Positions 3,830 to 45,209 are shown, counted from the first letter of the stretch. The stretch: DNA of 64,000 bases from an uncultured Chloroflexia bacterium (GCA_963814295.1 CAWFCH010000003.1:598366-662365), one strand, 5' to 3'. Notes: generated from the sequence alone by a model not told the origin. Translations and numbers: made by a program.

Positions 3830-5349
3830 ATGAAATTTACAAAGCAAGTCGGGCATCTCAATATTTTTGCTATTCTCGCACGGATGGGCATCGTCCTCAC
3901 CCTGTTGCTGCTGGCCGCCTGCGCGCCGGCGTCACCCGCCACGGTTTACTACATCACCCCGCTGCCTCAAACGCCCCAACCCGAGGAGGAGGAGGTTAAA
4001 GAACCAACTCCCATCGCCACCCGCCCGGTATACGACCCTGGCACACTGGTGGATTACACCGCCCAGATCTGGCGACACCCTACCGGTGCTCGCGCTGCGC
4101 TTCAACACCACAATGGATGAGATACTTGAAGCCAACCCGGATCTGTCTGGTGACATAACCACCCTTTCCCCGGGTGATGAGATCAGGATACCCATCTACT
4201 ATGAAGCCTTGTGGGGCAATCCCTACCAGATCATCCCCGATTCCCTCTTCGTGAACGGTCCCGCCCAGGCCGATTTTGATACGCGCGCCTTCGTGGACGC
4301 TCACCCCGGCTGGTTGAAAAATTATTCATCACTCGCCGGTGGAGAGATTCGCCGTGGTGGCGACCTGGTTGATTATGTGGCGCTCAATTATTCCGTCAGC
4401 CCGCGCCTGCTGCTGGCGCTGGCCGAATTCCAGGTTGGCGCGTTAACCGCTGAGACCCTGCCGGAGGAAATGAAGCGCTACCCGCTGGGGTTCGAAGACC
4501 TGTTCCACGAGGGATTTTACCTGCAGCTTACCTGGGCAGCCAACGTGCTGAACAACGGTTATTACAACTGGCGCACCGGCACACTCGATACCATCACCAG
4601 GCTGGACGGCACCATCGAGCACCCGGATCCGTGGCAGAATGCTGCAAGTGTCGCGTTGCAATATTACTTCGCCGGTCAATTGCCTGTCGACGGATTATCA
4701 GAAGGCGATTTACAGCGAAGGTTTTTACAAAACTTACACAGAACTTTTCGGTGACCCCTGGCAGAACGTCGTCAACCATATTCCGGGTAACCTGCAGCAG
4801 CCGGAGCTGGCGTTGCCATTCGAGCTTGGCAAGACCTGGACCTACACAGGTGGACCGCACGCCGCCTGGGGGCACAGCGCGCCGTTGGCGGCAATTGATT
4901 TCGCTCCCCCGGCTGCAATCGGTGGGTGTGCGCCCAGCGATCAGTTTGTAACCGCTGTTGCAGATGGTCAAATCGTCAGGTCAGAACCAGCGATCGCGCT
5001 GCTCGACCTTGACGGGGACGGCGATGAGCGCACCGGTTGGGTGATCCTTTACCTCCACCTTGGATTGAATAACCAGATACAACCGGGCATGCTGGTGAAG
5101 ACCGGTGACCCCATCGGGCATCCCTCCTGCGAGGGCGGTTCGGCCACCGGGACGCATGTTCATATCGCGCGCAAATACAACGGCGAATGGGTTTCAGCCG
5201 GCGGCACACTTGCCTTCAACCTTGAAGGGTGGATCGCTGGTAACGGCATCGAGGAATATCAAGGAACCTTAAAGAAACACGGCAGGACAGTAGATGCCTG
5301 CACGTGCTCCGACCCTGCCAGCCAGATAACCGCTGGTTTATTCGATTAA
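3830..5349 (+). pseudogene. LysM/M23 metallopeptidase paralog 3, two frame breaks near 4067 and 4690 (or assembly indels)
   Basis: Three consecutive ORFs in frames 2, 0 and 1 together rebuild signal peptide, LysM (YTAQ|SGDTLPVLALRF), central domain and M23 (PHAAWG..AIDFAP, GTHVHIARKYNGEWV), colinear with paralog 1. Confidence 0.7.
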
Positions 5350-11260: not shown

Positions 11261-11287
11261 CTACCTCATACAGGGTGAATGTCACCC

Positions 11288-11387
11288 GCTCATCAAGAGA
11301 GGTGGAGGGACCGGCCCGCAGAAACCTCGGCAACCGCGCAAGCAGCCTGGTGCCAACTCCGGCAGAAGGAATTCTGAAAGATGAGAG
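11288..11387 (+). promoter_or_regulatory. SAM-I (S-box) riboswitch
   Basis: gCTCATCAAGAGAGGTGGAGGGAccGGCCCgcaGAAACCtcGGCAACC...GGTGCCAActCCgGCAG...GAAAGATGAG matches the S-box consensus, including P1 pairing (gctcatc/gatgag). Confidence 0.85.
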
Positions 11388-11460: not shown

Positions 11461-14400
11461 ATGGAACGAAAATACACCAATCGCAAATACCTGGACGCGC
11501 TCAAGCACAAGATCATCGTTTTTGACGGGGCCATGGGCACCAACCTGCAGAACCAGGAACTGACCGCCGCACATTTCGGTGGTGAAAAGACAAACGGTTG
11601 CAACGATTACCTGGTCATCACCTTTCCGCAGGCTGTGGAAAAGGTCCACCGTTCTTTCCTTGAGGTTGGTGTGGATGTAATCGAAACCTGTACATTCCGA
11701 TCCAACCGTCTCACACTGGCGGAATACGGGCTCTCGGATAAAACTCACTTGATCAATAAGACAGCTGCTGAATTGGCACGCCGCCTGGCAGATGAATATT
11801 CCTCCTCCGGGCAGCAGCGCTTCGTTGCCGGGTCAATCGGTCCATCGGGTAAACTCCCGTCAATGAGCGACGCGGAACTCTCGAACATCACATTCGATGA
11901 ACTCGCCGCGATCTTCAAGGAACAGGCTACCGGATTGATCGAAGGTGGCGTGGACCTGATCCTGATTGAAACCTCTCAGGACATTCTCGAAGTTAAGGCC
12001 ATAATCCGCGGTATACAAGAAGCATTCACAGAAACAGGTGTTTACCTGCCGATACAGGCGCAAATCACGCTGGACACGACCGGGCGCATGCTGCTGGGAA
12101 CTGATATTTCAGCAGTGCTGGCGATCCTGGAAAAAATGGCCATCGACCTTATAGGCATGAATTGCTCCACCGGCCCTGACTTCATGCGTGAACCCATTCG
12201 CTTCCTTGGTGAAAATTCCCCGCTGCCGGTATCCTGCGTACCCAACGCCGGTCTGCCACTGAATGTGAATGGACAGGCGGTCTATCCATTGGAACCTGAA
12301 CCGTTCGCTCAAACCCTTTACGAGTTTGCTTCTAATAACGGAGTCAACGTGGTGGGCGGTTGCTGCGGCACCACTCCTGCTCACCTCGCCCTGCTGGTGA
12401 AAAAAGTTCGTGGTGTGCCGGTTACCCCCCGTCCTTCCTCCCTACCTGCGCGTCTTTCTTCAGCCATTCAGGCGCAGCCGATGCAGCAAGAGCCACCTCC
12501 CTTCTTCATCGCGGAAAGGCTGAATACCCAGGGTAGCCGCAATTTCAAGAAGATGGTGCTTGATGATGACTTTGAAAGCATTCTCACCCTCGCCCAGCAG
12601 CAGGTTGAAAGCGGCGCGCATGGGCTTGACCTATGCGTAGCACTCACTGAAAGGGCGGATGAAAAAGAGACCCTTCAACAACTCATCAAGACCGTCGCCC
12701 CCGTGATCAATCTGCCCCTGGTCATCGACACCACCGAGATCGATGTGCTTGAAACAGCGCTCAGAACCGCTCCCGGGCGCTGCTTGATCAACTCCACTCA
12801 CCTCGAAGGCGGCAGGGAAAAAGCCGACAGGATATTTGACCTGGCCAAAATGTATAACGCGGCAGTTATCGTCCTTACCATCGATGAGCAGGGAATGGCC
12901 AAGACCCGTGAACGCAAGCTGGAAGTGGCAAAACGTATTCACGACATCGCGGTTATCGAACACGGTCTGGATCCCGATGACCTGGTCTTCGACGACCTGA
13001 CCTTTACCCTCGCCACCGGATCAGATGAATTCGCGGCATCAGCCATAGAGACTATCGAAGGAATCCGCTTGATAAAAGACGCCCTGCCGGGTGTACTCAC
13101 ATCTCTTGGAGTCAGCAACGTATCCTTCGGGCTGGCACCCAACGCTCGCAAGGTCATCAACAGTGTCATGTTATATCACTGCGTGCAGGCGGGTCTTGAC
13201 ATGGCCATCGTCAACCCGGCAACCATCACCCCCTACCCGGATATCACTCCTGAAGAACGTGAATTGGCCGAGGACCTGATCTTCAACCGTACACCTGACG
13301 CGCTGCAGCAGTTGATTGAATACTTCCAGGAAGCCGGACCCGGTGAAGTCCAGGCGAACACGCAGCAGGAAGCCCTAAGCGCGATGACACCAGCTGAACG
13401 CCTTCACTGGAAGATCGTTCACCGCCACAAGGAGGAGATCGAAGCCGATATCGATACCCTGCTGGACGCTGGTGAGACCGGGGCGAGCCGCAATGATACT
13501 GCCGTTGGCATTCTTAACAATGTACTGCTGCCAGCGATGAAGGAAGTGGGCGATAAATTTGGCAGGGGTGAGCTTATCCTGCCATTCGTGCTGCAATCCG
13601 CTGAGGTGATGAAAAAGACGGTTACTTACCTTGAAAACTTCCTCGAACGCAAGGAAGGCACCAGTAAAGGTAAACTGGTGCTGGCCACCGTTTACGGTGA
13701 CGTTCACGATATTGGCAAGAACCTGGTCAAGACCATCCTCTCCAATAACGGGTACACCGTGGTCGATCTCGGAAAACAGGTACCGGCTGATACCATCATC
13801 ACCCGCGCGGTTGAAGAAAACGCTGATGCGATCGGTTTAAGCGCCCTGCTGGTGAGCACAAGTAAACAGATGCCGCTCATCGTCAATGAATTGCACCGGC
13901 GCGGACTCAAAATCCCCGTGCTGGTTGGGGGAGCGGCCATCAACCAGCGTTTCGGCAGGCGCATCCTGCAGACCGAAGACGGAACCTTTTATGAATCCGG
14001 TGTCTTTTACTGCAAGGATGCCTTTGAGGGACTTGCCACCATGGACGCGCTGTCTGATCCTGATAAGCGTGTCTCCATCGGGGAACGCATCTTGAGGGAA
14101 GCAAACATTGAACTCGAACGACCCGAGCCCGCGGCCAGAAGCGAAAGAAGCCCGCTTGAAAAAACCGTGAAACCAGCTCTCAGCATCCCAGGCGTTCCTG
14201 CTTATGGCGCACGCGTGGTCAACGAAATGCCGCTCGAGCTGGTCTTCGAAAACCTTGCGATAAATGAATTATTCCGCCTGTCATGGGGGGCAAAGAACGC
14301 CCATGGAGACGAATGGGAAAAGATCAAAGCCGATTATGAAAAGCGCCTGGCTTCCATGCGTAAGCAGGCAGCGGCTGAAAAATGGTTGAAACCAAGGGGG

Positions 14401-14976
14401 GTTTACGGCTACTGGCCGGCGCAGTCTGATGGCAACGACCTCATCCTTTATCAACCTGCCTCACTGGAGACGGGACAACCTGCAGAGCTAACCCGGTTCA
14501 GCTTCCCCAGGCAATCCAGCGGTGATTTCTTATGCCTGGCGGATTACTTTGCCAGCGTTGATTCCGGAAGGATGGACGTAGTGACCTTCCAGGTCGTCAC
14601 GGTCGGCGAAGAAGCCACAAGCCGCTTTGACCGCCTGCAAGCAGCGTCTGATTTCTCAGAAGCCTATTTCTCGCACGGCCTGGCGGTACAAACGGCAGAA
14701 GCCGCCGCAGAATACCTGCACCGCCACATCCGCCGCGAGCTTGGATTGAAAGAAGAACAGGGTAAGCGTTACAGCTGGGGTTACCCGGCGATACCAGACC
14801 TTGAAGACCACAGAAAGGTTTTCGAACTGCTGCTCGCGGAAAAGGAACTGGGAATGCGTTTGACGTCTGCCTGCCAGCTCGTGCCAGAGCAGTCTACCGC
14901 TGCCATCATCGTCCATCATCCAGACGCGAAATATTACAGTCTGGGCGAGACCCGGGTTGAACAGCTGATGAAATAA
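11461..14976 (+). CDS. metH: cobalamin-dependent methionine synthase
   Basis: 1171 aa containing Hcy-binding, pterin-binding, B12-binding (GDVHDIGKNLV) and AdoMet-activation domains. AGGAG RBS. Confidence 0.95.
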   Translation: MERKYTNRKYLDALKHKIIVFDGAMGTNLQNQELTAAHFGGEKTNGCNDYLVITFPQAVEKVHRSFLEVGVDVIETCTFRSNRLTLAEYGLSDKTHLINKTAAELARRLADEYSSSGQQRFVAGSIGPSGKLPSMSDAELSNITFDELAAIFKEQATGLIEGGVDLILIETSQDILEVKAIIRGIQEAFTETGVYLPIQAQITLDTTGRMLLGTDISAVLAILEKMAIDLIGMNCSTGPDFMREPIRFLGENSPLPVSCVPNAGLPLNVNGQAVYPLEPEPFAQTLYEFASNNGVNVVGGCCGTTPAHLALLVKKVRGVPVTPRPSSLPARLSSAIQAQPMQQEPPPFFIAERLNTQGSRNFKKMVLDDDFESILTLAQQQVESGAHGLDLCVALTERADEKETLQQLIKTVAPVINLPLVIDTTEIDVLETALRTAPGRCLINSTHLEGGREKADRIFDLAKMYNAAVIVLTIDEQGMAKTRERKLEVAKRIHDIAVIEHGLDPDDLVFDDLTFTLATGSDEFAASAIETIEGIRLIKDALPGVLTSLGVSNVSFGLAPNARKVINSVMLYHCVQAGLDMAIVNPATITPYPDITPEERELAEDLIFNRTPDALQQLIEYFQEAGPGEVQANTQQEALSAMTPAERLHWKIVHRHKEEIEADIDTLLDAGETGASRNDTAVGILNNVLLPAMKEVGDKFGRGELILPFVLQSAEVMKKTVTYLENFLERKEGTSKGKLVLATVYGDVHDIGKNLVKTILSNNGYTVVDLGKQVPADTIITRAVEENADAIGLSALLVSTSKQMPLIVNELHRRGLKIPVLVGGAAINQRFGRRILQTEDGTFYESGVFYCKDAFEGLATMDALSDPDKRVSIGERILREANIELERPEPAARSERSPLEKTVKPALSIPGVPAYGARVVNEMPLELVFENLAINELFRLSWGAKNAHGDEWEKIKADYEKRLASMRKQAAAEKWLKPRGVYGYWPAQSDGNDLILYQPASLETGQPAELTRFSFPRQSSGDFLCLADYFASVDSGRMDVVTFQVVTVGEEATSRFDRLQAASDFSEAYFSHGLAVQTAEAAAEYLHRHIRRELGLKEEQGKRYSWGYPAIPDLEDHRKVFELLLAEKELGMRLTSACQLVPEQSTAAIIVHHPDAKYYSLGETRVEQLMK

Positions 14977-14987
14977 GGGAAGGTTGA

Positions 14988-16859
14988 ATGCTCAACAACG
15001 AACAACTGAAGAAATTTCTCATCAATAACCGGGTATTATTTTCCGACGGCGCAATGGGTACCATTCTCAGCCAGCGCTTACCTGTTGGGCAAAACTGCCT
15101 GGATTGCGCTAACCTCACTCACCCGCGGATCATTGAAGCCATTCACCGTGAATACATCGTTGCCGGCGCGGATATGGTACAGACCAACACTTTCGGCGCT
15201 AACCGCTTCAAGCTGGCACAGCATGGACTGGAAGACAAGTTGCAGCAGATCAACACCGCGGGGGTGGAGATCGCCCGCCGCGCCGCCGCAGACAGCGGCA
15301 GATCCATTCTCATCGCCGGAGACATTGGTCCGCTGGGGGTGCGTATCGCTCCATTTGGAAGAGTACAACTGCCTGAAGCCCACGAAGCATTCGCGCAGCA
15401 GGCTACCGCCCTTTTGAATGCCGGGGCGGATATGATCATCATCGAAACCATGACCGATCTTTATGAAACTGTGGAAGCAATATCCGCGGTCCGCGAAATC
15501 TCAATGGAAGTACCTGTCATCGCCTCCATGACCTTCACGCGTGACAACCGCACGCTGCTCGGGGACCCTCCACCTAAGGTCGCGCAACTATTGCATGATG
15601 CCGGCGCGTCTGTCATCGGTGTCAACTGTTCCGGTGGACCCAACCAGATATTAAGTATCCTCAAGCAGATGCGACGCGCTTTGCCTGACGAGTTGTTTTC
15701 CGTCATGCCCAACGCCGGTTGGCCAGAGCAGGTTGAAGGGCGCATCATGTACCCCGCCGCACCTGAGTATTTCGGTACTTACGCACTGTCCTTCTGGCAG
15801 GCTGGAGCCAGTGTCATCGGCGGGTGCTGCGGAACGACCCCCACCCATATCGCCGCCATGGTGCAGGCTTTCCGCCATGCGCCAGAACTCGTACGCCAAC
15901 CGTTAGAAGTACTGACAGCAAGAGAATCCAATCTACATACCGGGACTGAAGCATTCCCTCCCACAAACCTGGCGCAAAAACTGGAGGCCGGGAAATTTGT
16001 TATCGCCGTGGAAATGGATCCACCCCGCGGTCTCTCAACCCACAAATTGATCGCCGGAGCCAGCCTGTTGGCAGAGGCCGGAGCGGACGTGATCGACGTC
16101 GCCGACAGCCCGATGGCCCGCATGCGAATGAGCCCCTGGGCGGTCTGCAGCCTGATCCAGCGCAGGGTGGGCATCGAAACCGTGCTGCATTTTCCCACCC
16201 GCGGCCGCAACGTACTGCGTGTTCAGGGTGACCTGTTGGCAGCTCACGCGCTGGATGTACGCAACATTTTCGTTGTCATGGGTGACCCAACCTCGATCGG
16301 AGATTACCCGGACGCCATGGATAATTACGACCTTGTGCCTTCAGGGTTGATCAAATTGGTCAAACAGGGTTTCAACGCCGGCCTTGATCACTCCGGCAGC
16401 GACATCGGGCAACCGACCAGTTTCTTCGTGGGGTGCGCGCTCAACCTCAAACCGCCTGACATGGGGGCTGAACTCAAGAACTTGCGCCGCAAGTTAAAGG
16501 CCGGTGCTGATTTCATCCTCACCCAGCCAATCTATCACTCTGCCCTGGTGACTGATTTTCTGCAATCCTATGAATCTGAATACGGTGAATTGCCCATCCC
16601 GCTAATTGTCGGTTTGCTGCCTTTGGCAAGCGCGCGGCACGCCGCCTTCCTGCAGGCCGAGGTGCCGGGCATCGAGATCCCTCAAGAAACCCGCGATCTG
16701 ATGAACGCCAGCGGGGACCAGGGCGCTAGCACGGGCATCCGGTTGACGATAGACCTGATCAACCAGATCAAACCACTGGTGCAGGGCATCTACCTCATGC
16801 CTGCCTTCCAGCGCTATGATCACGCCGCGGAGATCATCGAGGGGACAATAAACGCCTGA
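14988..16859 (+). CDS. bifunctional homocysteine S-methyltransferase / 5,10-methylenetetrahydrofolate reductase (YitJ-like fusion)
   Basis: N-terminal Hcy-MT domain (SDGAMGT, GGCCGTTP). C-terminal MTHFR domain (VEMDPPRG..., LTQPIY). Confidence 0.85.
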   Translation: MLNNEQLKKFLINNRVLFSDGAMGTILSQRLPVGQNCLDCANLTHPRIIEAIHREYIVAGADMVQTNTFGANRFKLAQHGLEDKLQQINTAGVEIARRAAADSGRSILIAGDIGPLGVRIAPFGRVQLPEAHEAFAQQATALLNAGADMIIIETMTDLYETVEAISAVREISMEVPVIASMTFTRDNRTLLGDPPPKVAQLLHDAGASVIGVNCSGGPNQILSILKQMRRALPDELFSVMPNAGWPEQVEGRIMYPAAPEYFGTYALSFWQAGASVIGGCCGTTPTHIAAMVQAFRHAPELVRQPLEVLTARESNLHTGTEAFPPTNLAQKLEAGKFVIAVEMDPPRGLSTHKLIAGASLLAEAGADVIDVADSPMARMRMSPWAVCSLIQRRVGIETVLHFPTRGRNVLRVQGDLLAAHALDVRNIFVVMGDPTSIGDYPDAMDNYDLVPSGLIKLVKQGFNAGLDHSGSDIGQPTSFFVGCALNLKPPDMGAELKNLRRKLKAGADFILTQPIYHSALVTDFLQSYESEYGELPIPLIVGLLPLASARHAAFLQAEVPGIEIPQETRDLMNASGDQGASTGIRLTIDLINQIKPLVQGIYLMPAFQRYDHAAEIIEGTINA

Positions 16860-35183: not shown

Positions 35184-35820
35184 TTTTCACACCCACACAC
35201 ATTACTCCAAAGACAGCCTCACGCGCATCGATAAGCTGATTGCTGCCGCGCGTTCACGCGGACTGGACCGGATCGTGGTGACCGACCACAATGTGCTGGC
35301 AGGCGCGCTTGAAGCCTGGCGCGCGGCACCCGACCTGGTGATTCCCGGCGAAGAAGTGCAAACCACTGAGGGCGAGTTCCTCGCTGCTTACGTGACGATT
35401 GAGGTCCCCCGCGGGCTCGAGCCGCTGGAAGCGCTCAAGCGCCTGCGCGACCAGGGTGCCTTCATCAGCATCTCCCATCCCTTCGACCCCCAACGCTCCG
35501 GCTGGAGCCGCGCCACGCTGGACCTCATCGCCCCACTGGTGGACGCCATCGAGACCGGCAACGCGCGCGTGTTCGTGCCCAGGTACAACCGCCAGGCCGC
35601 GGCTTACGCAGAAATGCTTGACCTGCCGGGCACCGCCGGCTCAGACGCGCATCACCAGAGCGAGGTTGGCTGTATGTATGCCCTGCTGCCTGATTTCCAC
35701 GACGCCGAAAGCCTGCGCGCCGCCATTCGCTCTGCCCAGGTGCACGGCAGATCCTCCTCCCCGCTGGTGCATCTCTATTCCATGCGCGCACGGGTGGTGA
35801 AAGTTTTACGAAAATCGTGA
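35170..35820 (+). CDS. PHP domain metal-dependent phosphoesterase (TTG start)
   Basis: KVDFHTHTHYSKDS, VTDHN and GSDAHH motifs. It overlaps the upstream gene by 14 nt. Confidence 0.75.
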   Translation: MLKVDFHTHTHYSKDSLTRIDKLIAAARSRGLDRIVVTDHNVLAGALEAWRAAPDLVIPGEEVQTTEGEFLAAYVTIEVPRGLEPLEALKRLRDQGAFISISHPFDPQRSGWSRATLDLIAPLVDAIETGNARVFVPRYNRQAAAYAEMLDLPGTAGSDAHHQSEVGCMYALLPDFHDAESLRAAIRSAQVHGRSSSPLVHLYSMRARVVKVLRKS

Positions 35821-35893
35821 ATCGAGAATAGAGAACGGAGAATCGTGAAAGTTAGGAGGATTCTCAACTCTCGATTCCCTACTCTCGTTTTTG
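35821..35893 (+). terminator. long imperfect hairpin plus T-run, candidate terminator
   Basis: Core gagaatc/gattctc and outer cgaga/tctcg pairings, followed by ttttt. Confidence 0.4.
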
Positions 35894-35920: not shown

Positions 35921-36004
35921 GGGGCGATGGCGGAATAGGCAGACGCAACGGACTTAAAATCCGTCGATGGTGACATCGTGAGGGTTCGACCCCCTCTCGC
36001 CCCA
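35921..36004 (+). tRNA. tRNA-Leu(UAA), class II with long variable arm; CCA not encoded
   Basis: Acceptor GGGGCGA/TCGCCCC plus discriminator A. Anticodon arm ACGGA-CTTAAAA-TCCGT, variable arm cgatggtgacatcg, T arm GAGGG-TTCGACC-CCCTC. Confidence 0.9.
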
Positions 36005-36062
36005 CTTTTTGTTCTAATGTTTTCATTGATCCCGCTTGACTTGAAAATCTCATCAAGTCACA

Positions 36063-36117
36063 GGGGGGCAAGCCCCGCCCTTCGCGAAGAACGCTCGGGT
36101 GCATGCCTCTCGCCCCA
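36063..36117 (+). repeat. modular repeat copy R1 (GC hairpin + 30-nt spacer + tRNA-3'-end-like 11-mer)
   Basis: ggggggcaagcccc | gcccttcgcgaagaacgctcgggtgcatgc | ctctcgcccca. Confidence 0.8.
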
Positions 36118-36148
36118 CAAATTCTGTAAATAACCGACACGCCTGCCT

Positions 36149-36273
36149 GGAGCGATTGGCGGCGACCGCAGGGAGGGCAGCTAGCACCGGACTTAAAATC
36201 CGTCGATGGTGACATCGTGAGGGTTCGACCCCGCCCTTCGCGAAGAACGCTCGGGTGCACGCCTCTCGCTCCA
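36149..36273 (+). other. rearranged tRNA-Leu(UAA)-like gene copy (contains repeat copy R2 at 36219-36273)
   Basis: 36188-36232 is identical over 45 nt to 35949-35993. Acceptor is GGAGCGA/TCGCTCC (compensated). The D region is expanded, and 30 nt are inserted in the T-stem 3' strand. Confidence 0.65.
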
Positions 36274-36287
36274 CAAATGGATCTGTT

Positions 36288-37391
36288 TTATGGTTCTAAC
36301 TCTGTACAATATTGATCATGATCGCAGTCACTAAAATACGTAATCGATGCTACCGTACCCCAACATTCATCTTGACCCCAATCATCGCATAATTGATGGC
36401 CAATAGTTAGATCTGAATAAGTGTAATCTGTTTGGGGTTCAACGTACCTGATACCCTTATCAGATGTTTCAAACGCCACAAAAGCATGACCAATCTCTCC
36501 ATTGGTGAAATCCACACCAACTATCCAAGCATTGATGTTCTCCATTCTTGCATTCTCAACTAGGTCTATTGCATAGTCCAGACATACATAATTATCTATG
36601 TCATATGGTTTCCAATTGGTATGATCCCGAGCTATAAAGTCAGCCAGCTCCTTCCATGTTATTGAGTGGTAAGATGGTGTGGGGGTTTCTTCTGGTCTTT
36701 TCGGGGTAGTTGAACTCAATGGATTGTAATTAACAACGGTTATATTATCAAAAGCGTATTCTGCATCACTAGAACTACTTGGAAATATACACAAACCGAT
36801 ATCACCTGACGTGAAAGAAGAATCATTTACACTACCGACAAAGGTATTGTTAACATAGAAATCTAAAATGTTGTTGTTCATTGAGATGGTAATATTGTTT
36901 GTTCTAGTTCCGGTTAATATACTTGTGGAATTCACCATACGTAATAATGAACTTGGAGTGTTGTTAACGTACTTCTCAACATGAAAATAACCATCATTCT
37001 TAATTAAGAATAAATACCCATTACTATCTCTGTTGTCCCTAAAAAGAATCCCGGCTTCGGAATCACTACCTCCTGAGATTTGACGAATATCTGCATTGAT
37101 CACACCATCCGAAAAAGCCCCTCCTGCATAAACACAATTACCCATATCGCCCTTATAGTTCAGGAAATGATATTGTTCATTAGAAATATATGATTTCCCC
37201 TCATCATCTTCACCAATCCACCAACTACTCTGCGCATCTGAAAAATCTTCGAAGTATAGAATATCTGAATTAGCTGATTCATTTGTACTGGTGGGATCTA
37301 CTAAACTGTCCGGTTGTGTTATACCCGTGGAAGTACATCCTGACAGCAGCAGTATAAAAAATATAACAATAGTATTTCTCATGAACAACAT
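36288..37391 (-). CDS. hypothetical lipoprotein: LamG/jelly-roll-like N-domain plus putative Cys-His (transglutaminase/papain-like) C-domain
   Basis: Lipobox LLSGC and AT-rich codon usage. C-terminal YVCLDYA ... GHAFVAF ... YVEPQTD is spaced like a Cys-His-Asp triad. Confidence 0.5.
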   Translation of the reverse strand: MLFMRNTIVIFFILLLSGCTSTGITQPDSLVDPTSTNESANSDILYFEDFSDAQSSWWIGEDDEGKSYISNEQYHFLNYKGDMGNCVYAGGAFSDGVINADIRQISGGSDSEAGILFRDNRDSNGYLFLIKNDGYFHVEKYVNNTPSSLLRMVNSTSILTGTRTNNITISMNNNILDFYVNNTFVGSVNDSSFTSGDIGLCIFPSSSSDAEYAFDNITVVNYNPLSSTTPKRPEETPTPSYHSITWKELADFIARDHTNWKPYDIDNYVCLDYAIDLVENARMENINAWIVGVDFTNGEIGHAFVAFETSDKGIRYVEPQTDYTYSDLTIGHQLCDDWGQDECWGTVASITYFSDCDHDQYCTELEP

Positions 37392-37393
37392 GT

Positions 37394-39054
37394 TTAAAGT
37401 TTCTCAAACCCTTTCCTGATCACCTGGGCCATTGCTTTTCCACGCGCTTCAAGAAAATCAGGATATTTCATGTCGTACCATCGATCAGGTAAGGCATGAA
37501 GGAAGTTGATCTTTTTCCATTCATCTTTTGAATATCTATCTTGATAAACTTTGAAATACTTGGATGGAGGAACATCCGAAATATCGATATTGTCATTCCA
37601 CTCCACAAGTGCAAAGTTCGCCACCTGGTTTGTATCACGGACCTCTTTTATCCCTATTGAGTAGAGATACCCTTTCGGAAATAGGTGATGCCTCTCGACT
37701 GCTGATTTTTTTGCATTGATCTTGGGATCAAGAAGGTCGGCGACAGATAGGTTAGAGAAAAGAACTGGGGCTTTTAGGTTAGACGAATGCTGCGTAATAA
37801 GCCAACATCGATGGAGGTCTTGGGAAAGAGGTTTCCATTTGGTTTGGTAATGTAATCGCCCAGAAATCCTCAGTAAGCGCATCATCAATGAGGTGGTTTA
37901 ATCATTCAATGTATTCTTCACCTGTTTTGATGTCCCGTAATCGATTTAGGTCCTGTTCCATGACCGTTTCAAATGAGCCCGAATATCTACTCGTGAGAGC
38001 GGTCATAAAGAACCATTTAGATATCAATTTCCTCAACCGTTGATGGTCGATGTCGTAATCATATTTTCCGATCAGGTAAAAGACATAGGCATACATCAGT
38101 CCATTTTGCGAACTGATCAACTGGTCACTCACATAACCTGCTGAAAGGATGGCTTTAAGAAATTCATGCCAATTCTGTAAATCAAGAACTCTACTCTGCG
38201 CTTTTTCCAGAACAAGGAATTGCTGATCTCTTCGGGCATCAGAAAACTCTTCTGTTTCGAGGTCTTTTCCTCGGAGGATCAAATACGCATATTTCAGTCT
38301 TGCACGTTTGAACCCAAAGCCAACACAGGTCCTCAATAGTTGATCAGGATCTGGTTGAATATAGTAATTAAATGACGTAGGCTTCTTGTCTACGGGTGCA
38401 ATTCGAGATTCTCTGCAAAATGCTTCTAATTGTTTGCGTCCTTCTTCCCAGAAAACAGACATCAACGTAAGGATGAAATCCGCCTGGTTGAGCGGAGTAC
38501 CCTTACTATTCACACGAACAAATATTTCAGATACTTCTTCTTCGTTTGCTGCACTACTGACCTCTAAAACCGTAAATGGATATAACCTGATGTTATCCAG
38601 ATTGTTGATGTTAGTTTGGATAAGAGTTTCATCATCTTCGCTTACTGGTCTTGATTCAGCCAGCCTAGTAATATAATCCTTTGCTACACCGAATATTCCA
38701 TTCTTGTGTGACCAAATCAGGGAAATATCACTAATGAATTCTGGATTTCTCGCAATCGCCGCATCATATACCTCAAATTTTTCAGTCAAAGGGTTGAAAG
38801 CAATCAGAATTTTTTCTTTTCTAAAATCCTCCCGGAGCACCGGTATGTTGAAACCCAGGTGGATGAAGCAACACGACGTGATCATTCTGACCGATACTGG
38901 ATTTATCGACGAGCATTACCAGGAAACAAAAACCTCCGCCTGCTGTTACTTCACCTTCGCCGGTGTGGATAAACCCCAGAACGATGCGTCGATTTTTAAA
39001 GAAAACGCTATAAGCCAGGGTAGCGTTTTTATGATCACTTTTAAATTTCACCAA
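37394..39054 (-). pseudogene. decayed DUF262/DUF1524 (GmrSD-like type IV restriction family) gene
   Basis: Three ORF pieces in different frames. DUF262 core is FVRVNSKGTPLNQADFI. An in-frame TGA at 37902-37904 is followed by 40 more protein-like codons. The DUF1524 His-Me motif is ERHHLFPKGYL...NFALVEWNDN. The N-terminal motif region is missing at repeat R3. Confidence 0.7.
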
Positions 39055-39059
39055 GTTGT

Positions 39060-39115
39060 GGGGGGGTACGACCCGCCATACTCAAAGAACGCTCGGGTGC
39101 ATACCTATCGCCCCA
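39060..39115 (+). repeat. modular repeat copy R3
   Basis: gggggggtacgaccc | gccatactcaaagaacgctcgggtgcatac | ctatcgcccca. Confidence 0.8.
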
Positions 39116-39150
39116 TAAAATTTGACCATCGCCGATACGTACCTGGAGGA

Positions 39151-40585
39151 CTAAGCCGCTTTTTCCTGCGTGTGAGCAGCACAATCACGACCACTGCCGC
39201 GACCACGACTGACGGCCACCGCGAAATAGATGCCCAGGAACCACCCGATACGCGGAGCAGGAGCCTCTGCAGTGTCTGGTGATAACTCCTCAGCCTCAGC
39301 GCCGTAAGGAAGGACAACAATATTGGGTTCACCGGGTCCAGCCGTTCTGGCGTTGCCCGCGTCAACGGCTGCCACCTGTGGCCAGCTAGCGCTCTCGGCG
39401 GCGATATCGAAGATTTGCAGTTCGCCTAACCCCTCTGAATCCGCGGAGAGCAAGCTGCCGGTTTCGACCATCACGCGATTCGCCGGTCGCTTTCGATGTG
39501 AACTCCACAGTGCCTTCTATGACTTTTACAGTTGAGCTGGTGCCATCATCTTCCAGGACAAGTGTGGTGCCTTTGATCCCGGTTACTGCTTGACCCATCT
39601 CAATCTCCATCGAGCCATCCTTTATCATTCTTTTAAAATTGATCCATAGCTGTCCGCCAAGCAGTTTAAATTGACCAGGTTTTGCCTGCGGTTTCGACAA
39701 ATAGATTTCCGTTTCAGGCTTCATGGAAAAGGTTGTCATATCGGCAAAAGACAGGATGACTGTGCTTCTGTCGCTTGTTTTTATTCGCGTTCCTTCGGGA
39801 AGCGTCATATCAAGTTTGGCAATCGTCCAGGCTTCCTCATCCCAATCCGGCTCGCCGTCTGCCATATATCCTTTCGGGATCAACACTTCCACCTGCCCTG
39901 ATAAATCGCTGAAGCGGGCACCTGAATCCGGGAAGGTCACGGCGGGGGGTACCAAGGGAGCAACGATTGGGATTGGGTTAGTAGATGGTGGATTGCCCTT
40001 CAGTCCAGTAACTGTGACCCAGATTTCATCTGCTGCTGCTGAACTGGCATAACCGAGAAAGACTGAAACAGAAAAGCCATTCGCTCTTATTTCGTCGGTG
40101 ATAGTGACCACCACCGGTTTTGGTGAAAAACTCCATCCCGGCGCACCGTTACTATCCGGGGCACGGAAAGTTTCAATTTTTTCGTTGTTCAACCGAACAT
40201 CACCATCAGTTGCCCAACTTCCTGTGATGCTATAGGGTCCATAAACCGTACATTGAATTGTCACCTGGCTTCCGGTTGGATACCCGTCTATAACTGCCGA
40301 AGGATAAAATGATTCATTTGATTGAACCGCAAGTCCCTCAACGGTATACTCGATAACGAGCCCTTTTCTACCTTCTATTTTCCCGGATGCGGAATCATCG
40401 TTCTGGAGAGAAATGTTATTCAGCGGACCTTCCCAACCTTTTCCGGAAAATGTCAATTCTTCGGGCTGTAAATAGCGGCTGGATGTCGATTCCTGCTTTG
40501 CGGGAAAGGAGGAAACTGAGAGTGGGGTTGCCAGCAGGAAGGCAGTCAGGATACAGTTCGTGAAAATAAAAGTTGAACGGTTCAT
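39151..40585 (-). pseudogene. secreted FecR-domain protein with C-terminal hydrophobic anchor, frame break near 39476 (possibly a second near 39200)
   Basis: Signal peptide, a beta-rich N-region, then a FecR-like segment (ARFSDLSGQVEVL...GIKGTTLVLEDDG..VKVIEGTVEF). The sequence continues in ORF 39151..39474 (VMVETGSLLSA...). A TM plus RRKKR lies in a third frame. Confidence 0.6.
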
Positions 40586-40782
40586 CGTTGCTCCTTTATC
40601 AAAACCAGGCTCGGCAATAGATGGTACGGATCGGTTGTGTCGTGATACACCAATGTATCCAGCACAGGAGCTTCATGCAACACCCCTACCGCAATGAGTG
40701 AAAAGTCGGAAGCCGCGAGTCCGCTTTGTATAGGCATGAAAAACATGAAAAGGGCGATTAAACAGATGAATATTTTTTTCAT
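40582..40782 (-). CDS. small secreted hypothetical protein
   Basis: 66 aa with signal peptide MKKIFICLIALFMFFMPIQSGLA. The stop overlaps the start of the FecR-domain gene (ATGA). Confidence 0.45.
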   Translation of the reverse strand: MKKIFICLIALFMFFMPIQSGLAASDFSLIAVGVLHEAPVLDTLVYHDTTDPYHLLPSLVLIKEQR

Positions 40783-41053
40783 TTCACACCCCTAAATTTT
40801 CATAATAATTGGGTTAAAAGGCTGTACGCCAAGTCAATAAACCTATTCTATTTAAATTATAGGCTCTATTTTTTAAATCATCCTTGAATTTTGCGGGTAC
40901 ATGCTGACCCCCCGTACAAAAAACCTGATATGCTGCATCGCTTTGCGCCCTAAGTGCTATAATCATTAACAGGGTATCATCACATTAGTTCATCAAGTCC
41001 TGTTCCAAAAGGTCGTTTATAGAAAATAATTCATACAACAACAGAGGGAGATT

Positions 41054-42202
41054 ATGATGAGTATGATAAAGCGTTTTAGGCCTTTTATATTCTTTGCATG
41101 TGTCATATTGAGCGTATCGCTTGCTTGTGGCAGCAGCACCCCTACCCCAACAGAATCTACCGCTGTTGGTGAAGTAGGTCAATTGGACACAATAAACACG
41201 CTTGTATCCACAATGATGCCTGAACCCATTGCTACACCAGAGCCGGCCAGTATCCCGACCGCCATGCCTGTAGGGTTAAGCCGTTCTCAACCATTCCCGC
41301 GTTCAGAAATTGTGCCTGCTCCCAATTGGGATGTCCAGGTGCTCGAAGTAAAACGCGGTGATGAGGCATGGAATGAGATCCTCGCCGCAAATCAGTATAA
41401 CGACGCTGCCCCGGAAGGTATGGAATATCTCTTAATAAAGTTGCACGTTATGAGTACATATGCAGATAATGAAGAACACACCATCGGTCATTGTGATTTT
41501 AATGTTACAGGTGACCGGTTAATCCTGTATTCTTGTCTGTCAACTTTTGCTGTTTCGCCAGAACCACAACTGGACGCAACACTTTTCACTGGCGGTGAGA
41601 CAGAAGGCTGGATCTCATATTTAGTTGGGAAGGGCGAAGGAAACTTGATTCTTATTGTAGATGAAGGTCTTAACTTCGATGATGGTTCTAGTCGATTCAT
41701 TGCCATTGATGAAGGTGCTTCCATAAGTGTATCTCCTGATTTTGCTTCACTTGCACCCACCAATTTGGGGACAGATAGAATGTCTCCGGCACCAATGGGT
41801 GAAAAACTTGTTTCGGATGATTGGGAAATCACGATTCTTGAATCCATCCGCGGTGAAGAGGCGTGGAATATTGTTCTGGAAGCAAATCAGTATAATGACC
41901 CGCCTGAGGCGGGTATGGAATTTATTTTAGTAAAAGTACACGCCCGGAACATAAGCACACAGGATATCGCCCAGTCCATGGATTTCACTTCCTTTACAAC
42001 CACTGGAAGTGCAAATGAAATCTATGATGCTCCGTGGGCTGTTGCTCCAGAACCTATTCTTACTTCATCCTTATTTCCAGGTGGAGAAACCGAAGGTTGG
42101 ATAGTGGTACAAGCGGCAATATCCGAAACAGGCGTGAATCTGATCTTTGCACCACTTTGGGATTTCAGCGGAAATTCTAAACGTTACATATCTCTTGAAT
42201 AG
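41054..42202 (+). CDS. lipoprotein with two tandem DUF4352-like domains
   Basis: Lipobox SLACGS. Internal duplication: WDVQVLEVKRGDEAWNEILAANQYNDAAPEGMEYLLIKLHV versus WEITILESIRGEEAWNIVLEANQYNDPPEAGMEFILVKVHA. Confidence 0.65.
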   Translation: MMSMIKRFRPFIFFACVILSVSLACGSSTPTPTESTAVGEVGQLDTINTLVSTMMPEPIATPEPASIPTAMPVGLSRSQPFPRSEIVPAPNWDVQVLEVKRGDEAWNEILAANQYNDAAPEGMEYLLIKLHVMSTYADNEEHTIGHCDFNVTGDRLILYSCLSTFAVSPEPQLDATLFTGGETEGWISYLVGKGEGNLILIVDEGLNFDDGSSRFIAIDEGASISVSPDFASLAPTNLGTDRMSPAPMGEKLVSDDWEITILESIRGEEAWNIVLEANQYNDPPEAGMEFILVKVHARNISTQDIAQSMDFTSFTTTGSANEIYDAPWAVAPEPILTSSLFPGGETEGWIVVQAAISETGVNLIFAPLWDFSGNSKRYISLE

Positions 42203-42221
42203 ACCCAAGGGGTATATATAA

Positions 42222-42274
42222 GGGGCATGCCCCGCTTTTCACAAAGAACGCTCGGGTGCATGTCTCTCGCCCCG
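42222..42274 (+). repeat. modular repeat copy R4
   Basis: ggggcatgcccc | gcttttcacaaagaacgctcgggtgcatgt | ctctcgccccg. Confidence 0.8.
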
Positions 42275-42319
42275 CAAGTGAATAGTTTTGGTGCGTTTTC
42301 AACGCACCAACGAAAATCC

Positions 42320-43300
42320 CTACGGTTGCCACGCCGGGGAGGAGGCGGTGATCCCCTCGGGCAGCTCCAGCAGCGTTCTCACTTCCCCCGTCTCCACGTT
42401 AACAATAAAGATATTACGCATCACCACGCTGTTGCCCACGGCGATCTCGCGCGCGTCCGGTGACCAGGTGCACATCACCTCCTCGGAGAATTCCGGTTCA
42501 GTCAGCCGGTGCACATCACTACCGTCCCTGTTCATCACGTACAACGCGAACAGGTTGTAGGTGCCGTCGCGCTCCGAGAAGAAGGCGATCTGCTGCCCAT
42601 CATGCGACCAGGTGGGCTTGATGTTCGCCCACACGTCATTAGTGAGTGCAATATCGCTCGAGTCCGCCAGGTTCTTCACATGGATCTGGCTGGAGCCGTC
42701 GTTGCGTTCCTGCTGCTCGACGAGCGACATGTACGCCAGGTACTGACCGTCCGGTGACCACGCCGGGGTCTGGAAGAAGAAATCATACGAGGGTACGCTG
42801 AATTTCGTGATCTCGTGCGTATCCAGGTCGTACATGCGCCACCACCACACGCCGTTGCCATCGTGGGTTCGGAACACCACCTGGTGACCGTTGGGTAGCC
42901 AGATGGGATGGTCGTTCTCATTGTCCTCGGTCAGGCGCTGGGGATACTTGCCGTCCGCGTCCATGATGTAGATCTGGCTTGCCCCACCGCCGCGCGTTGA
43001 TGTGAAGGCGATGCGCCTGCCATCCGGTGACCACGCCGGGTCGGTATCGATTAGCCACTCGTTGGTGATGTTCACCAGGTTGCTGCCGTCTGGGCAGACG
43101 GTGTGAATATCCGCGTTCGCGCCGTCGGTGATCACAAACGCGATTTTCGAGCAATCTCCGGCAGTTGTCGCGGTCACGGTGGGAACGGGTTCCGCGGTCT
43201 CCATCGGGAGTATAGCGGGAAGCTCTGTTGGCGCGTTGCTGCCGCACGCGGTGAGGACCATGATGAAGGCAAGATAGATCAACAGGCATAATTTTTTCAT
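42320..43300 (-). CDS. TolB-like PD40 beta-propeller lipoprotein
   Basis: Start MKKLCLL with lipobox LTACGS. Repeats SPDGRRIAFTS, SPDGQYLAY, SHDGQQIAFFS and SPDAREIAV. Confidence 0.75.
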   Translation of the reverse strand: MKKLCLLIYLAFIMVLTACGSNAPTELPAILPMETAEPVPTVTATTAGDCSKIAFVITDGANADIHTVCPDGSNLVNITNEWLIDTDPAWSPDGRRIAFTSTRGGGASQIYIMDADGKYPQRLTEDNENDHPIWLPNGHQVVFRTHDGNGVWWWRMYDLDTHEITKFSVPSYDFFFQTPAWSPDGQYLAYMSLVEQQERNDGSSQIHVKNLADSSDIALTNDVWANIKPTWSHDGQQIAFFSERDGTYNLFALYVMNRDGSDVHRLTEPEFSEEVMCTWSPDAREIAVGNSVVMRNIFIVNVETGEVRTLLELPEGITASSPAWQP

Positions 43301-43365
43301 GGGTACATTATAATCAGAATGTTCACATCCTTTCCGGGTCAATTCTTAAACAATTTTTTGATCTT

Positions 43366-43857
43366 ATGCCTGCTGCCACTGCCAATAAAAAGCTAATCCT
43401 GATATTCAGTCTGATCGGCCTGGTAATCATCATGCTATTTACCGCAGCCATGCTGATCGATTTCATCCGCATTCAACCCGCGCCAACAGCTGAACTTTCC
43501 AACAATACTCCAGTCCAGTGGAAAGTGGATCCGGTGTCTTATGGTGACCACTTCATAACCATCACCGGCTGGGCGTTGATACCCGGTGAGCCTCCGGTAA
43601 CGTTCAACAGCCGCGTGGTACTTGAGAACGTTGAAACCGGCAGGCTTATCCGCATCCCCACCATGTTGATTCCGCGTGATGGACTGAACGAGCAATTTCC
43701 GGATGGCATTGATTACACTCAAAGTGGCTTTTTAGCCAAGGTCAACAGGAAGCTGATCGGACTTGATGTTAACACCTGGCGGGTATTTCTCGATTATCAG
43801 AACAACGGACATGCATATTTCCTCAACATGAACCTTGTCCTGGAGCATACACAATGA
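43366..43857 (+). CDS. hypothetical N-terminally anchored protein
   Basis: 163 aa with a single TM helix. The stop overlaps the next start (ATGA). Confidence 0.45.
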   Translation: MPAATANKKLILIFSLIGLVIIMLFTAAMLIDFIRIQPAPTAELSNNTPVQWKVDPVSYGDHFITITGWALIPGEPPVTFNSRVVLENVETGRLIRIPTMLIPRDGLNEQFPDGIDYTQSGFLAKVNRKLIGLDVNTWRVFLDYQNNGHAYFLNMNLVLEHTQ

Positions 43858-45209
43858 GAGCGCTCCGGTTGGGCTTCTCACGGCTGGCGCGGAACGAGTA
43901 CTTTCCGTTCGTGATCCTGTTCCTGGTTATGCTGGTGCTCCATGCCTTCATCCCCATGAGCCTGATGGATGACCGTCATTACAAGCGCATGACGGAGATC
44001 TCCAGGTTGTTCCCATACCTGGTGGATATCTACGGGGAATGGAGTTCACGGCTGATCATCCTCACAGCTGTTCGCGGGATGCTGGGCACCTTCCCGCCGT
44101 TCGTTTGGCGCGTTCTCAACCCGGCAGTCTTCGCCATGCTTGGTCTGATCATCTCGAGACTGGTGACCAGGAAAGCCTCAGCGCGCGTCAACTGGTTCAT
44201 CACGTTCCTGCTCTTCACGTTCCCTTTTATCGATATGCGTTCAGCGGGATGGGTTACGACAAGCCTGAATTACCTCTGGGTCGCAGCCTTCGGGTTGTAC
44301 GCGATCTTGCTGGCGAAGAAAACCCTTGCGGGGGACCCGGTTCATCCAATAGAATACGCCCTCGCTATCCCGGCGTTGTTGTATGGTGCGAACCAGGAAC
44401 AGATGGCAGTGATCCTGGTGATAGTTTTTATGGTGATGACCGTGATCATGATTTACCAGAAAAAATATTATTGGTACCTACCGACCGGATTGCTGCTATC
44501 GATCGCCAGCCTTTTATTCTCACTTTTCTCCCCAGGGAATGCCGCGAGGAAATTGGTGGAAATGGATGAGTTCATCGATTTCGATGTGCTTTCAGTTGTC
44601 GATAAACTGGAAATTGGTTTTTCGTCGACAATGGAACGTCTCGTCTTCCGCCCCAACCTGTTATTTGCCTTGTTCTGCCTCGTCCTGGCGATGGTAGTAA
44701 TAAAAAGGTTTCCCACAACTTTTCACCGCGTCTATGCCCTGCTCCTTTTCTTCGGCGTGTTTTATTTTGGCTTCTTGATCCGGCTGGGCGAGAACTTCTT
44801 CCCGTTTCTCCAGGGAATTCAATATCAGATCACGGATAGGGGATTCATCACGCTTGAGAATTTTACCCATGTCAGCAGCTTTTTCCCCTTCTTCATCGCG
44901 AGCGGCTTGATGGTAATGGTCTTCAGCTTATTATTGACCTTTTTCCGCCAGCGCCGAGGATTTATCGCAGGAGGCATCCTGTTATTAGGTTTTTTATCCC
45001 GGGTGATGCTGGGGTTCTCTCCCTCCATTTGGGCTTCCTCCTCAAGAACCATGATGTTCCTGTATATCGCCATCATCCTGTGTGCTGCGATGCTTTTTGA
45101 TGATGAAATCCAGGATAATCTTCATTATCAATCATCTGAATTGACGGTTAGTGGAATTGTTGCCTTGATCTCGCTACTAAATTTGGTCACAATAATCCTC
45201 CAGGTTTGA
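43854..45209 (+). CDS. hypothetical polytopic membrane protein (glycosyltransferase-C-like topology)
   Basis: 451 aa with more than 10 hydrophobic helices. It is translationally coupled to the upstream gene. Confidence 0.5.
   Translation: MRALRLGFSRLARNEYFPFVILFLVMLVLHAFIPMSLMDDRHYKRMTEISRLFPYLVDIYGEWSSRLIILTAVRGMLGTFPPFVWRVLNPAVFAMLGLIISRLVTRKASARVNWFITFLLFTFPFIDMRSAGWVTTSLNYLWVAAFGLYAILLAKKTLAGDPVHPIEYALAIPALLYGANQEQMAVILVIVFMVMTVIMIYQKKYYWYLPTGLLLSIASLLFSLFSPGNAARKLVEMDEFIDFDVLSVVDKLEIGFSSTMERLVFRPNLLFALFCLVLAMVVIKRFPTTFHRVYALLLFFGVFYFGFLIRLGENFFPFLQGIQYQITDRGFITLENFTHVSSFFPFFIASGLMVMVFSLLLTFFRQRRGFIAGGILLLGFLSRVMLGFSPSIWASSSRTMMFLYIAIILCAAMLFDDEIQDNLHYQSSELTVSGIVALISLLNLVTIILQV

Follow-up and report, generated by a model that had tools for sequence, protein, structure and literature searches.

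Here, we describe a locus within 64,000 nucleotides (nt) of DNA from an uncultured Chloroflexia bacterium (GCA_963814295.1 CAWFCH010000003.1:598366-662365; the whole of this stretch is referred to below as the window), in which four same-strand copies of a short repeated unit, designated R1 to R4, lie between a tRNA-Leu(UAA) gene and a gene for a PD40 beta-propeller protein and delimit two blocks of foreign DNA, B and C. The homologues of a PHP-domain gene located just upstream of the tRNA gene point to Anaerolineaceae, and seven related versions of the locus were recovered from Anaerolineaceae contigs. The features of the locus are collected in Table 1.

Repeated units and foreign blocks beside a tRNA-Leu gene

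The tRNA-Leu(UAA) gene is the only one of its kind in the window; it was called by ARAGORN, carries no insert, and matches the Rfam tRNA family with 58.1 bits. Blocks B and C, which are each bracketed by units, encode lipoprotein, GmrSD-like, FecR, and DUF4352 genes, and contain no genes for recombination or transfer. Their GC content (Table 1) was computed against 0.544 and 0.520 in the two flanks, which bears out a compositional shift that a preliminary description, made from the sequence alone, had judged by eye. The cargo annotation proposed there was likewise upheld by Pfam and PADLOC, namely FecR, DUF4352, and a decayed GmrSD-like gene with its 5′ end abutting R3; the last of these matches the Pfam family GmrSD_N with an E-value of 4e-7, and two of its fragments match PADLOC HEC-05 collinearly. 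The FecR gene (39151-40585, minus strand) appears to be frameshifted; its 399-amino-acid (aa) open reading frame (ORF) has an arginine-rich end, and an overlapping ORF of 107 aa (39151-39474), the unique part of which has a GC content of 0.61, may be the true C-terminus of the FecR protein.

No integrase was found in the window, in agreement with the preliminary description. Pfam detected no recombinase domain in the ORFs of the island or in 20 other ORFs of the window, which yielded housekeeping families only, and the four window ORFs that lay outside the Pfam scan correspond by synteny to housekeeping regions of one relative (L066). In addition, integrase remnants from the relatives, which are described below, gave no match when used as tblastn queries against the window.

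Table 1. Features of the tRNA-Leu locus. Positions are counted from the first nucleotide of the window, except for the integrase remnants, which are given as positions in the relatives.
Feature	Position	Strand	Remarks
Intact tRNA-Leu(UAA)	35921..36005	+	ARAGORN and Rfam; hot-spot anchor; last 11 nt (ctctcgcccca) copied in every repeat
R1, extended unit	36039..36141	+	core 36063-36117: hairpin 36063-36076, spacer 36077-36106, 17-mer 36087-36103, 11-mer 36107-36117
R2, in pseudo-tRNA-Leu	36149..36273	+	unit 36219-36273: spacer 36233-36262, 17-mer 36243-36259, 11-mer 36263-36273
Block B	36274..39059	-	GC 0.396; no counterpart in any relative
Lipoprotein-like ORF, block B	36288-37391	-	
Decayed GmrSD/HEC-05-like defence gene, block B	37394 to ~39054	-	at least 3 fragments/frames; 5′ end abuts R3
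R3, extended unit	39037..39139	+	core 39060-39115: hairpin 39060-39074, spacer 39075-39104, 17-mer 39085-39101, 11-mer 39105-39115
Block C	39116..42221	mixed	GC 0.470; no counterpart in any relative
FecR-domain gene, block C	39386-40585	-	probably frameshifted, tail to 39151
Small ORF, block C	40582-40782	-	
DUF4352 lipoprotein gene, block C	41054-42202	+	
R4	42222..42274	+	hairpin 42222-42233, spacer 42234-42263, 17-mer 42244-42260, 11-mer 42264-42274 (ctctcgccccg)
PD40 beta-propeller gene	42320..43342	-	Pfam; first conserved host gene right of the variable interval
Integrase remnant, L070	10906-10998		
Integrase remnant, L071	305-777		
Integrase remnant, L022	13196-13540		

Each unit consists, in this order, of a short GC hairpin, a spacer of 30 nt in which the 17-mer AAGAACGCTCGGGTGCA lies, and an 11-mer that matches or nearly matches the 3′ end of tRNA-Leu (ctctcgcccca) and starts at the 3′ strand of its T-stem. 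The 11-mers of R1 to R4 read ctctcgcccca, ctctcgctcca, ctatcgcccca, and ctctcgccccg, respectively. All four units are intergenic, share the orientation of the tRNA gene, and lie exactly at block boundaries. A scan of the window returned four exact matches to the 17-mer, all on the plus strand; with up to three mismatches allowed, 0.21 matches are expected by chance, and the observed count was reached in none of 100 shuffles. The units align with a mutual identity of 82-88% in a gapless register of 56 nt, and the spacer is therefore exactly 30 nt long in each. The four same-strand copies and their architecture, as first proposed, are thus borne out by both scan and alignment, while the length of ~55 nt given for the element holds for the core but falls short for R1 and R3: the similarity between these two spans at least 103 nt (36039-36141 versus 39037-39139), and 31 of the 47 flank positions outside the core are identical in register (p~4e-7).

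When the two copies found in the relative L070 (see below) are added to those of the window, the six copies show an invariant run of 17 columns among 21 variable columns of 56 (p~0.0009). Unit position 22 is G in R1 and R2 (36086 and 36242) and A in R3, R4, and both L070 copies (14624 and 14735), and the two R2-type copies both have C directly after the 17-mer. A mosaic of this kind suggests that adjacent units of the same genome have undergone gene conversion.

R2 lies in a pseudo-tRNA-Leu that agrees with the genuine tRNA at 48 of 49 positions from anticodon stem through T loop (36184-36232), has the acceptor GGAGCGA/TCGCTCC, and carries a diverged and expanded D region in its 5′ part. The 30 nt of R2 sit between GACCCC and CTCTCGCTCCA of the pseudo-tRNA, and R2 is the same as R1 at 50 of 52 positions rightward of GACCCC. 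Furthermore, the pseudo-tRNA bears a signature, CACCGGACTT, in common with the element-side arm of a displaced tRNA fragment in the relative L022. R2 is a hybrid in which the left part, with this signature, is pseudo-tRNA and the right part is R1-like, the two being joined at the boundary between T-arm and hairpin. The pseudo-tRNA had been called a tRNA-like gene, a view that finds no support: the segment is not called by ARAGORN, its top Rfam match is tRNA-Sec with 23.5 bits versus a gathering score of 47, and it is not a conserved gene, because L070 keeps the 3′ half alone.

The unit might also work in a folded state, either as a small tRNA-like RNA whose end is the acceptor 3′ strand or as an attC-like hairpin of single-stranded DNA for cassette capture, an explanation that we regard as very improbable. 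The aligned units do contain an imperfect 14-bp inverted repeat (columns 1-15 with 34-49), in which 86.9% of the cells are paired versus 35-60% when the two arms are slid; its helix contains bulged bases and, in R3, a single compensatory change from C-G to T-A, and the fold of R4 reaches z=-2.7. However, the covariation is no better than in shuffles (170-256 of 500), the folds of R1 to R3 reach z-values of only -0.6 to -1.4 with many G-T pairs, and the units gave no Rfam match even at E<=10 and no promoter or terminator consensus. The units lack the AAC...GTT boxes of attC, IntI is missing, and the blocks comprise several genes in mixed orientation. Nor is the D-region insert of the pseudo-tRNA significantly complementary to the 30-nt spacer (duplex energy, p=0.22 versus shuffles), and the idea of the pseudo-tRNA as a functional RNA built on such pairing was rejected, as it is also weakened by a whole-molecule z of -1.05 and by the missing 5′ half in L070. 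Two further candidates were rejected, namely a conserved long hairpin, which pairs well and shows no covariation, and a terminator or promoter role of the units, at which no such consensus sites occur.

The locus and its units in related genomes

The tRNA-Leu gene and its 5′ flank are kept in L022, L065, L066, L070, and L071. L070, from ENA, is syntenic with the window on both sides, with ~93-94% nucleotide identity in the flanks; the homology ends exactly at the 3′ end of the tRNA (36005) and restarts at the stop codon of the PD40 gene. Between tRNA-Leu and PD40, the window holds 6.3 kb and L070 holds 3.9 kb of entirely different DNA. Rightward synteny with L070, L022, and L083 restarts at 42319-42324. 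The synteny comparison proposed in the preliminary description also yielded an empty site, in L066, where a sulfatase gene directly follows the tRNA. In L022 (PHP protein 83% identical), a 2.3-kb islet with HEPN_AbiU2 is followed by a 64-nt displaced fragment of the tRNA 3′ part and then by an integrase remnant. In L071, cargo of 4.5 kb separates the same remnant, which comes after the tRNA, from a perfect direct repeat of ~76 nt of the tRNA 3′ part. In L070, the remnant lies directly 3′ of the tRNA, and other small genes occupy the interval in L079-L082 (1.8 kb in L079). No relative carries block B or block C, with or without flanking repeats. With cargo that differs among the relatives between syntenic flanks, and with the classic island signature present in relatives, the DNA 3′ of tRNA-Leu(UAA) serves this clade as a hot spot of integration.

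A second variable spot lies beside the island locus. In the window, L070, and L022, a 163-aa ORF and a GT_STM0557_N glycosyltransferase gene (window 43366-45209) separate PD40 from the sulfatase gene; L079-L083 lack both, and PD40 and the sulfatase gene are directly adjacent there.

The integrase gene found after the tRNA-Leu 3′ end in L022, L070, and L071 is of the tyrosine type and is cut down to its N-terminal SAM-like domain. A full-length version was not found, all five database homologues being truncated to 58-134 aa, and the truncated gene has the appearance of an old pseudogene retained throughout the clade. The L070 remnant is broken at 'gaccggaaa' and joined to the 3′ half of the tRNA. 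Since the islands associated with this integrase carry plain tRNA repeats without the 30 nt, the lost enzyme is probably not that of the units described here. The recombinase loss envisaged at the outset therefore finds a counterpart in the decayed integrase of the relatives, but probably not in the enzyme that served these units.

Units with the exact 17-mer occur twice in L070, as copies B and C, together with cargo unlike that of the window. In copy B, the 3′ half of the tRNA precedes the 30 nt and the 11-mer. Copy C, located 57 nt beyond copy B, is R1-like (94% identical to R1) and ends 7 nt before the PD40 stop codon. A 3.5-kb island in L070 is bracketed by direct repeats of 44-47 nt and lies inside an R2-type unit, because these repeats extend into the first 7 nt of the spacer. 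L083 (PD40 protein 84% identical) has one unit at its contig end, again 7 nt from the PD40 stop codon and with the 30-nt spacing kept; its 11-mer is TTCTCGCCCCA and its box agrees at 15 of 17 positions (CAGAACGCTTGGGTGCA), so the invariance first ascribed to the 17-mer holds for the four copies of the window but not across relatives. The L083-L070 alignment runs without interruption from PD40 into the unit, which makes the PD40-adjacent unit ancestral to the L070 and L083 lineages, and R1 is the window copy closest to it (89-94%). In both the window and L070, a stretch of exactly 57 nt (window 36006-36062, L070 14657-14713) separates an end in CTCTCGCCCCA from an R1-type hairpin; this end belongs to the real tRNA in the window and to copy B in L070, and the two stretches are barely alike save for their last ~12 nt.

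Beyond this locus, the exact 17-mer has 21 matches in GTDB representative genomes and 41 in JGI metagenomes, all of them single, in unrelated context, and without hairpin and 11-mer, and none in IMG/VR, where two degenerate patterns of the unit gave chance matches only. A hidden Markov model built from six copies detected no further unit in the window, L022, L066-L069, L071, or L079-L082, and neither the window nor ~17 kb of L070 showed a unit outside this locus. The unit was thus not found elsewhere in the window, in the other loci recovered, or in three public collections; within these 64 kb of the source genome, the dispersed repeat of repetitive extragenic palindromic type that the preliminary description had named as grounds for refutation was not seen.

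The contigs of several relatives end in the tRNA-Leu T-arm, in the unit, or just before the tRNA (L065 at 1299, L079 at 8411, L083 at 1428, and L023 at 10761). Three of these breaks, in L065, L079, and L083, fall within the T-arm or the unit itself, as is expected because repeats confuse assembly, and they suggest that short-read assemblies are regularly broken here by the repeats.

Origin of the units

On balance, and by a modest preference, we interpret the four units, in the simplest reading, as att-type recombination junctions of integrase-less islets at the tRNA-Leu(UAA) integration hot spot. The interpretation draws on the interval that differs between syntenic flanks in every relative, on the canonical islands of L071 and L022, on units placed exactly at the edges of low-GC blocks, on the L070 units with their different cargo, on the unit beside PD40 as an ancestral boundary mark, on the 17 invariant columns, and on the Dehalococcoides precedent described below. 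Each unit would represent an island-side arm joined to 11 nt that are a displaced copy of the 3′ end of the tRNA, and the arm would comprise the T-arm-like GC hairpin and the 30 nt with the 17-bp box. This box is a putative binding site for a recombinase or an accessory protein, and its 17 invariant columns are consistent with a protein-binding site retained by each incoming element. By site-specific recombination, presumably with a crossover in the T-stem region, the units would have come to delimit small foreign islets, namely blocks B and C and the nearly empty interval between R1 and R2. As the islets no longer encode a recombinase, they would be either fixed relics or cis-mobilizable elements served in trans. 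The left part of R2 would be a pseudo-tRNA arm from an element of the L022 type and its right part an R1-like unit, and this hybrid structure implies that units can recombine with tRNA-type att sites. The units themselves, besides the tRNA, probably serve as insertion points, so that the array would not be a simple stack at the tRNA; this proposal is based on the hybrid R2, the L070 island inside a unit, the position of R1 as the copy nearest to the ancestral unit, and the plain-repeat islands in relatives. Drift and gene conversion also act on the units.

Several observations weigh against this interpretation. No recombinase able to use the units was found, and the integrase remnants of the relatives accompany plain tRNA repeats that lack the 30 nt. 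No dyad symmetry of a core site was found at the spacer/11-mer junction, where ~8 of 22 positions are complementary, and neither a circular nor an empty-site intermediate was seen. The stretch after R4 measures 45 nt instead of the ancestral 7 nt. The oldest-looking copy, R1, is nearest to the tRNA, which is the opposite of simple accretion; of the serial integration at the tRNA 3′ end proposed earlier, the tRNA-linked hot spot and the foreign, strain-specific blocks stand, but not an order in which the oldest copy lies farthest away. Some of the invariance of the 17-mer may stem from gene conversion rather than protein binding, because L083 has two substitutions and position 22 has been homogenised. 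Finally, R2 and L070 copy B resemble a perfect tRNA fragment with a precise insertion of 30 nt, and for these two copies an insertion model is simpler.

Such a model, akin to the hairpin-targeting miniature element that the preliminary description had raised as its alternative, and which we consider possible though unlikely, takes the 30 nt, with or without the 11-mer, as a miniature site-specific insertion between a T-arm-like GC hairpin and CTCTCGCCCCA. Its targets would be displaced, non-essential tRNA-Leu fragments and pseudo-tRNA arms left by earlier integrations, and the island boundaries would stem from those older fragments rather than from the 30 nt. It accounts well for R2 and copy B, in each of which the tRNA sequence from anticodon loop to 3′ terminus is interrupted by exactly 30 nt and is intact on either side, and for a spacer length that is constant in seven copies, L083 included. 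Although R1-type and R2-type spacers also share the genome-specific base at position 22, as if one had been copied from the other, this is explained equally well by gene conversion between copies that lie 111-156 nt apart. The unit has neither terminal inverted repeats nor a target duplication, and the first 10 and last 3 nt of the spacer diverge about as much as the hairpins do, a pattern that co-divergence of the whole unit fits better. Moreover, the searches of the window, of L070, and of the public collections described above returned no copy off the locus. The apparent empty site of the R1 core seen in L022 was rejected, being not significant past the first 20 nt after the tRNA (117 of 500 shuffles).

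The array can also be read as the outcome of local segmental duplication and gene conversion of a module of ~100-230 nt, consisting of the R1 unit and the pseudo-tRNA, with no dedicated site-specific recombination involved, the blocks having arrived otherwise and the repeats being incidental to them. We hold this to be improbable. It draws on the register shared by R1 and R3 over at least 103 nt, on the near-identity of R1 and R2 to the right of the hairpin (50 of 52), on concerted evolution at position 22, and on the lack of a recombinase in the window. However, every repeat is a boundary of both composition and gene content, L070 retains the repeats with wholly different cargo and has an island bracketed by direct repeats inside a unit, and bona fide islands of the integrase type occur at the same locus in relatives.

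A further reading, which seems quite improbable, is that the unit is the recombination site of an unrecognised cassette-exchange platform of Anaerolineae located between the tRNA-Leu and PD40 genes. A recombinase encoded elsewhere would recognise the 17-bp box, and possibly also the imperfect hairpin in its folded form, and multi-gene cassettes would be inserted, deleted, and shuffled at any copy of the unit, including those in pseudo-tRNAs. If true, this would explain why units are kept with no common cargo in two ~94%-identical genomes, as well as the permuted order of the units.

Known systems, neighbouring features, and significance

The displaced-fragment principle, by which islands that target tRNA or tmRNA genes regenerate the target gene, underlies Islander, which lists just 4 arrays of three or more among 3919 islands (PMC4383910). 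As in Islander-type islands, one end of the locus has an intact tRNA, the edges carry copies of its 3′ end as direct repeats on the same strand, and the cargo is foreign and strain-specific; the 11-nt copy starts at the 3′ strand of the T-stem, as in the Islander 'T-stem region' crossover class, and L071 and L022 show the textbook form at the same locus. Unlike those islands, the window has no integrase, its displaced copy is just 11 nt long and comes after a pseudo-T-arm and a conserved segment of 30 nt unrelated to tRNA, four junctions follow one another in a row, and insertion at the tRNA alone would not account for the order in which the copies lie.

The nearest documented parallel is offered by the ssrA islands of Dehalococcoides, in which each repeat has, directly before it, a conserved 15-bp motif that does not align with ssrA and that indicates the point of insertion in the T-loop, and in which 15 islands without an integration module are read as cis-mobilizable (PMC3146451). 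Both cases concern a Chloroflexota host, tandem islands 3′ of one small-RNA gene, and direct repeats of its 3′ end at the boundaries, and the 30-nt segment with its 17-bp box takes the part of the 15-bp motif here. In contrast, the Dehalococcoides islands target ssrA and rely on the large serine recombinase DsiB, encoded in many of them, whereas the target here is tRNA-Leu with no known enzyme. The remnants in the relatives are of the tyrosine type and come with plain repeats, and the units include a hairpin, one of them being placed in a pseudo-tRNA.

Three other systems can be compared with the units. Integron attC sites, including clusters of attC sites lacking integron-integrases (CALIN), resemble them as repeated, same-strand, imperfectly palindromic sequences of ~55 nt between unrelated gene blocks with no integrase nearby. 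Unlike attC (RYYYAAC ... GTTRRRY), the aligned units, on inspection, have no AAC...GTT pair at the ends of their inverted repeat, end in a tRNA 3′ copy, and pair without covariation support, and the blocks measure 2.8-3.1 kb with 2-3 genes on both strands, whereas attC cassettes are short, mostly single-gene, and co-oriented. In the ICESt1 family, cis-mobilizable elements and their accretion were reportedly described by Pavlovic et al. in 2004; such elements are similarly bounded by att sites, lack integrase and transfer genes, and lie in tandem at one attachment site, but no helper element or integrase has been identified for the units here, and mobilisation is putative. In cyanobacteria, small dispersed repeats or elements resembling miniature inverted-repeat transposable elements are said (Elhai et al. 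in 2008) to be nested in hairpins and highly dispersed in the genome. They share with the units a segment of ~30 nt that appears to be inserted at a fixed position beside a GC hairpin, including in sequence resembling an RNA gene, but all known copies of the unit lie at one locus, and no terminal repeats were seen. The locus is a locally unusual case of a well-known type of genome scar and not a new system, while the architecture of its repeat is lineage-restricted and somewhat unusual.

Several other features of the window deserve mention. A 28-nt inverted repeat (35808-35835 and 35861-35888, 79% complementary, with a 25-nt loop) lies between the PHP and tRNA-Leu genes, is conserved upstream of the tRNA in L065 and L070, and may be a terminator or a processing structure. 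A SAM (S-box) riboswitch (11287-11387, plus strand; Rfam, 86.8 bits) stands just upstream of an ORF of 1171 aa (11461-14976), which is followed by a homocysteine S-methyltransferase/MTHFR fusion gene (14988-16859); together they look like a methionine-cycle operon under SAM control. Additionally, four plus-strand ORFs with LysM and/or M23-peptidase domains between 694 and 5349 (694-2220, 2559-3800, 3867-4754, and 4639-5349) look like a tandem cluster of paralogues, possibly with a frameshift between the last two.

The genome dynamics of Anaerolineae are poorly described because most of their genomes are metagenome bins that break at such repeats. The locus provides a precisely mapped, tRNA-linked hot spot at which small defence and surface-protein islets turn over between near-identical strains, and its boundary repeat could act as a search key for the missing recombinase and for further islets. 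Should the units turn out to be active and to be served in trans, the locus would constitute a simple natural landing pad; if not, it would be a fossil record of past integrations.

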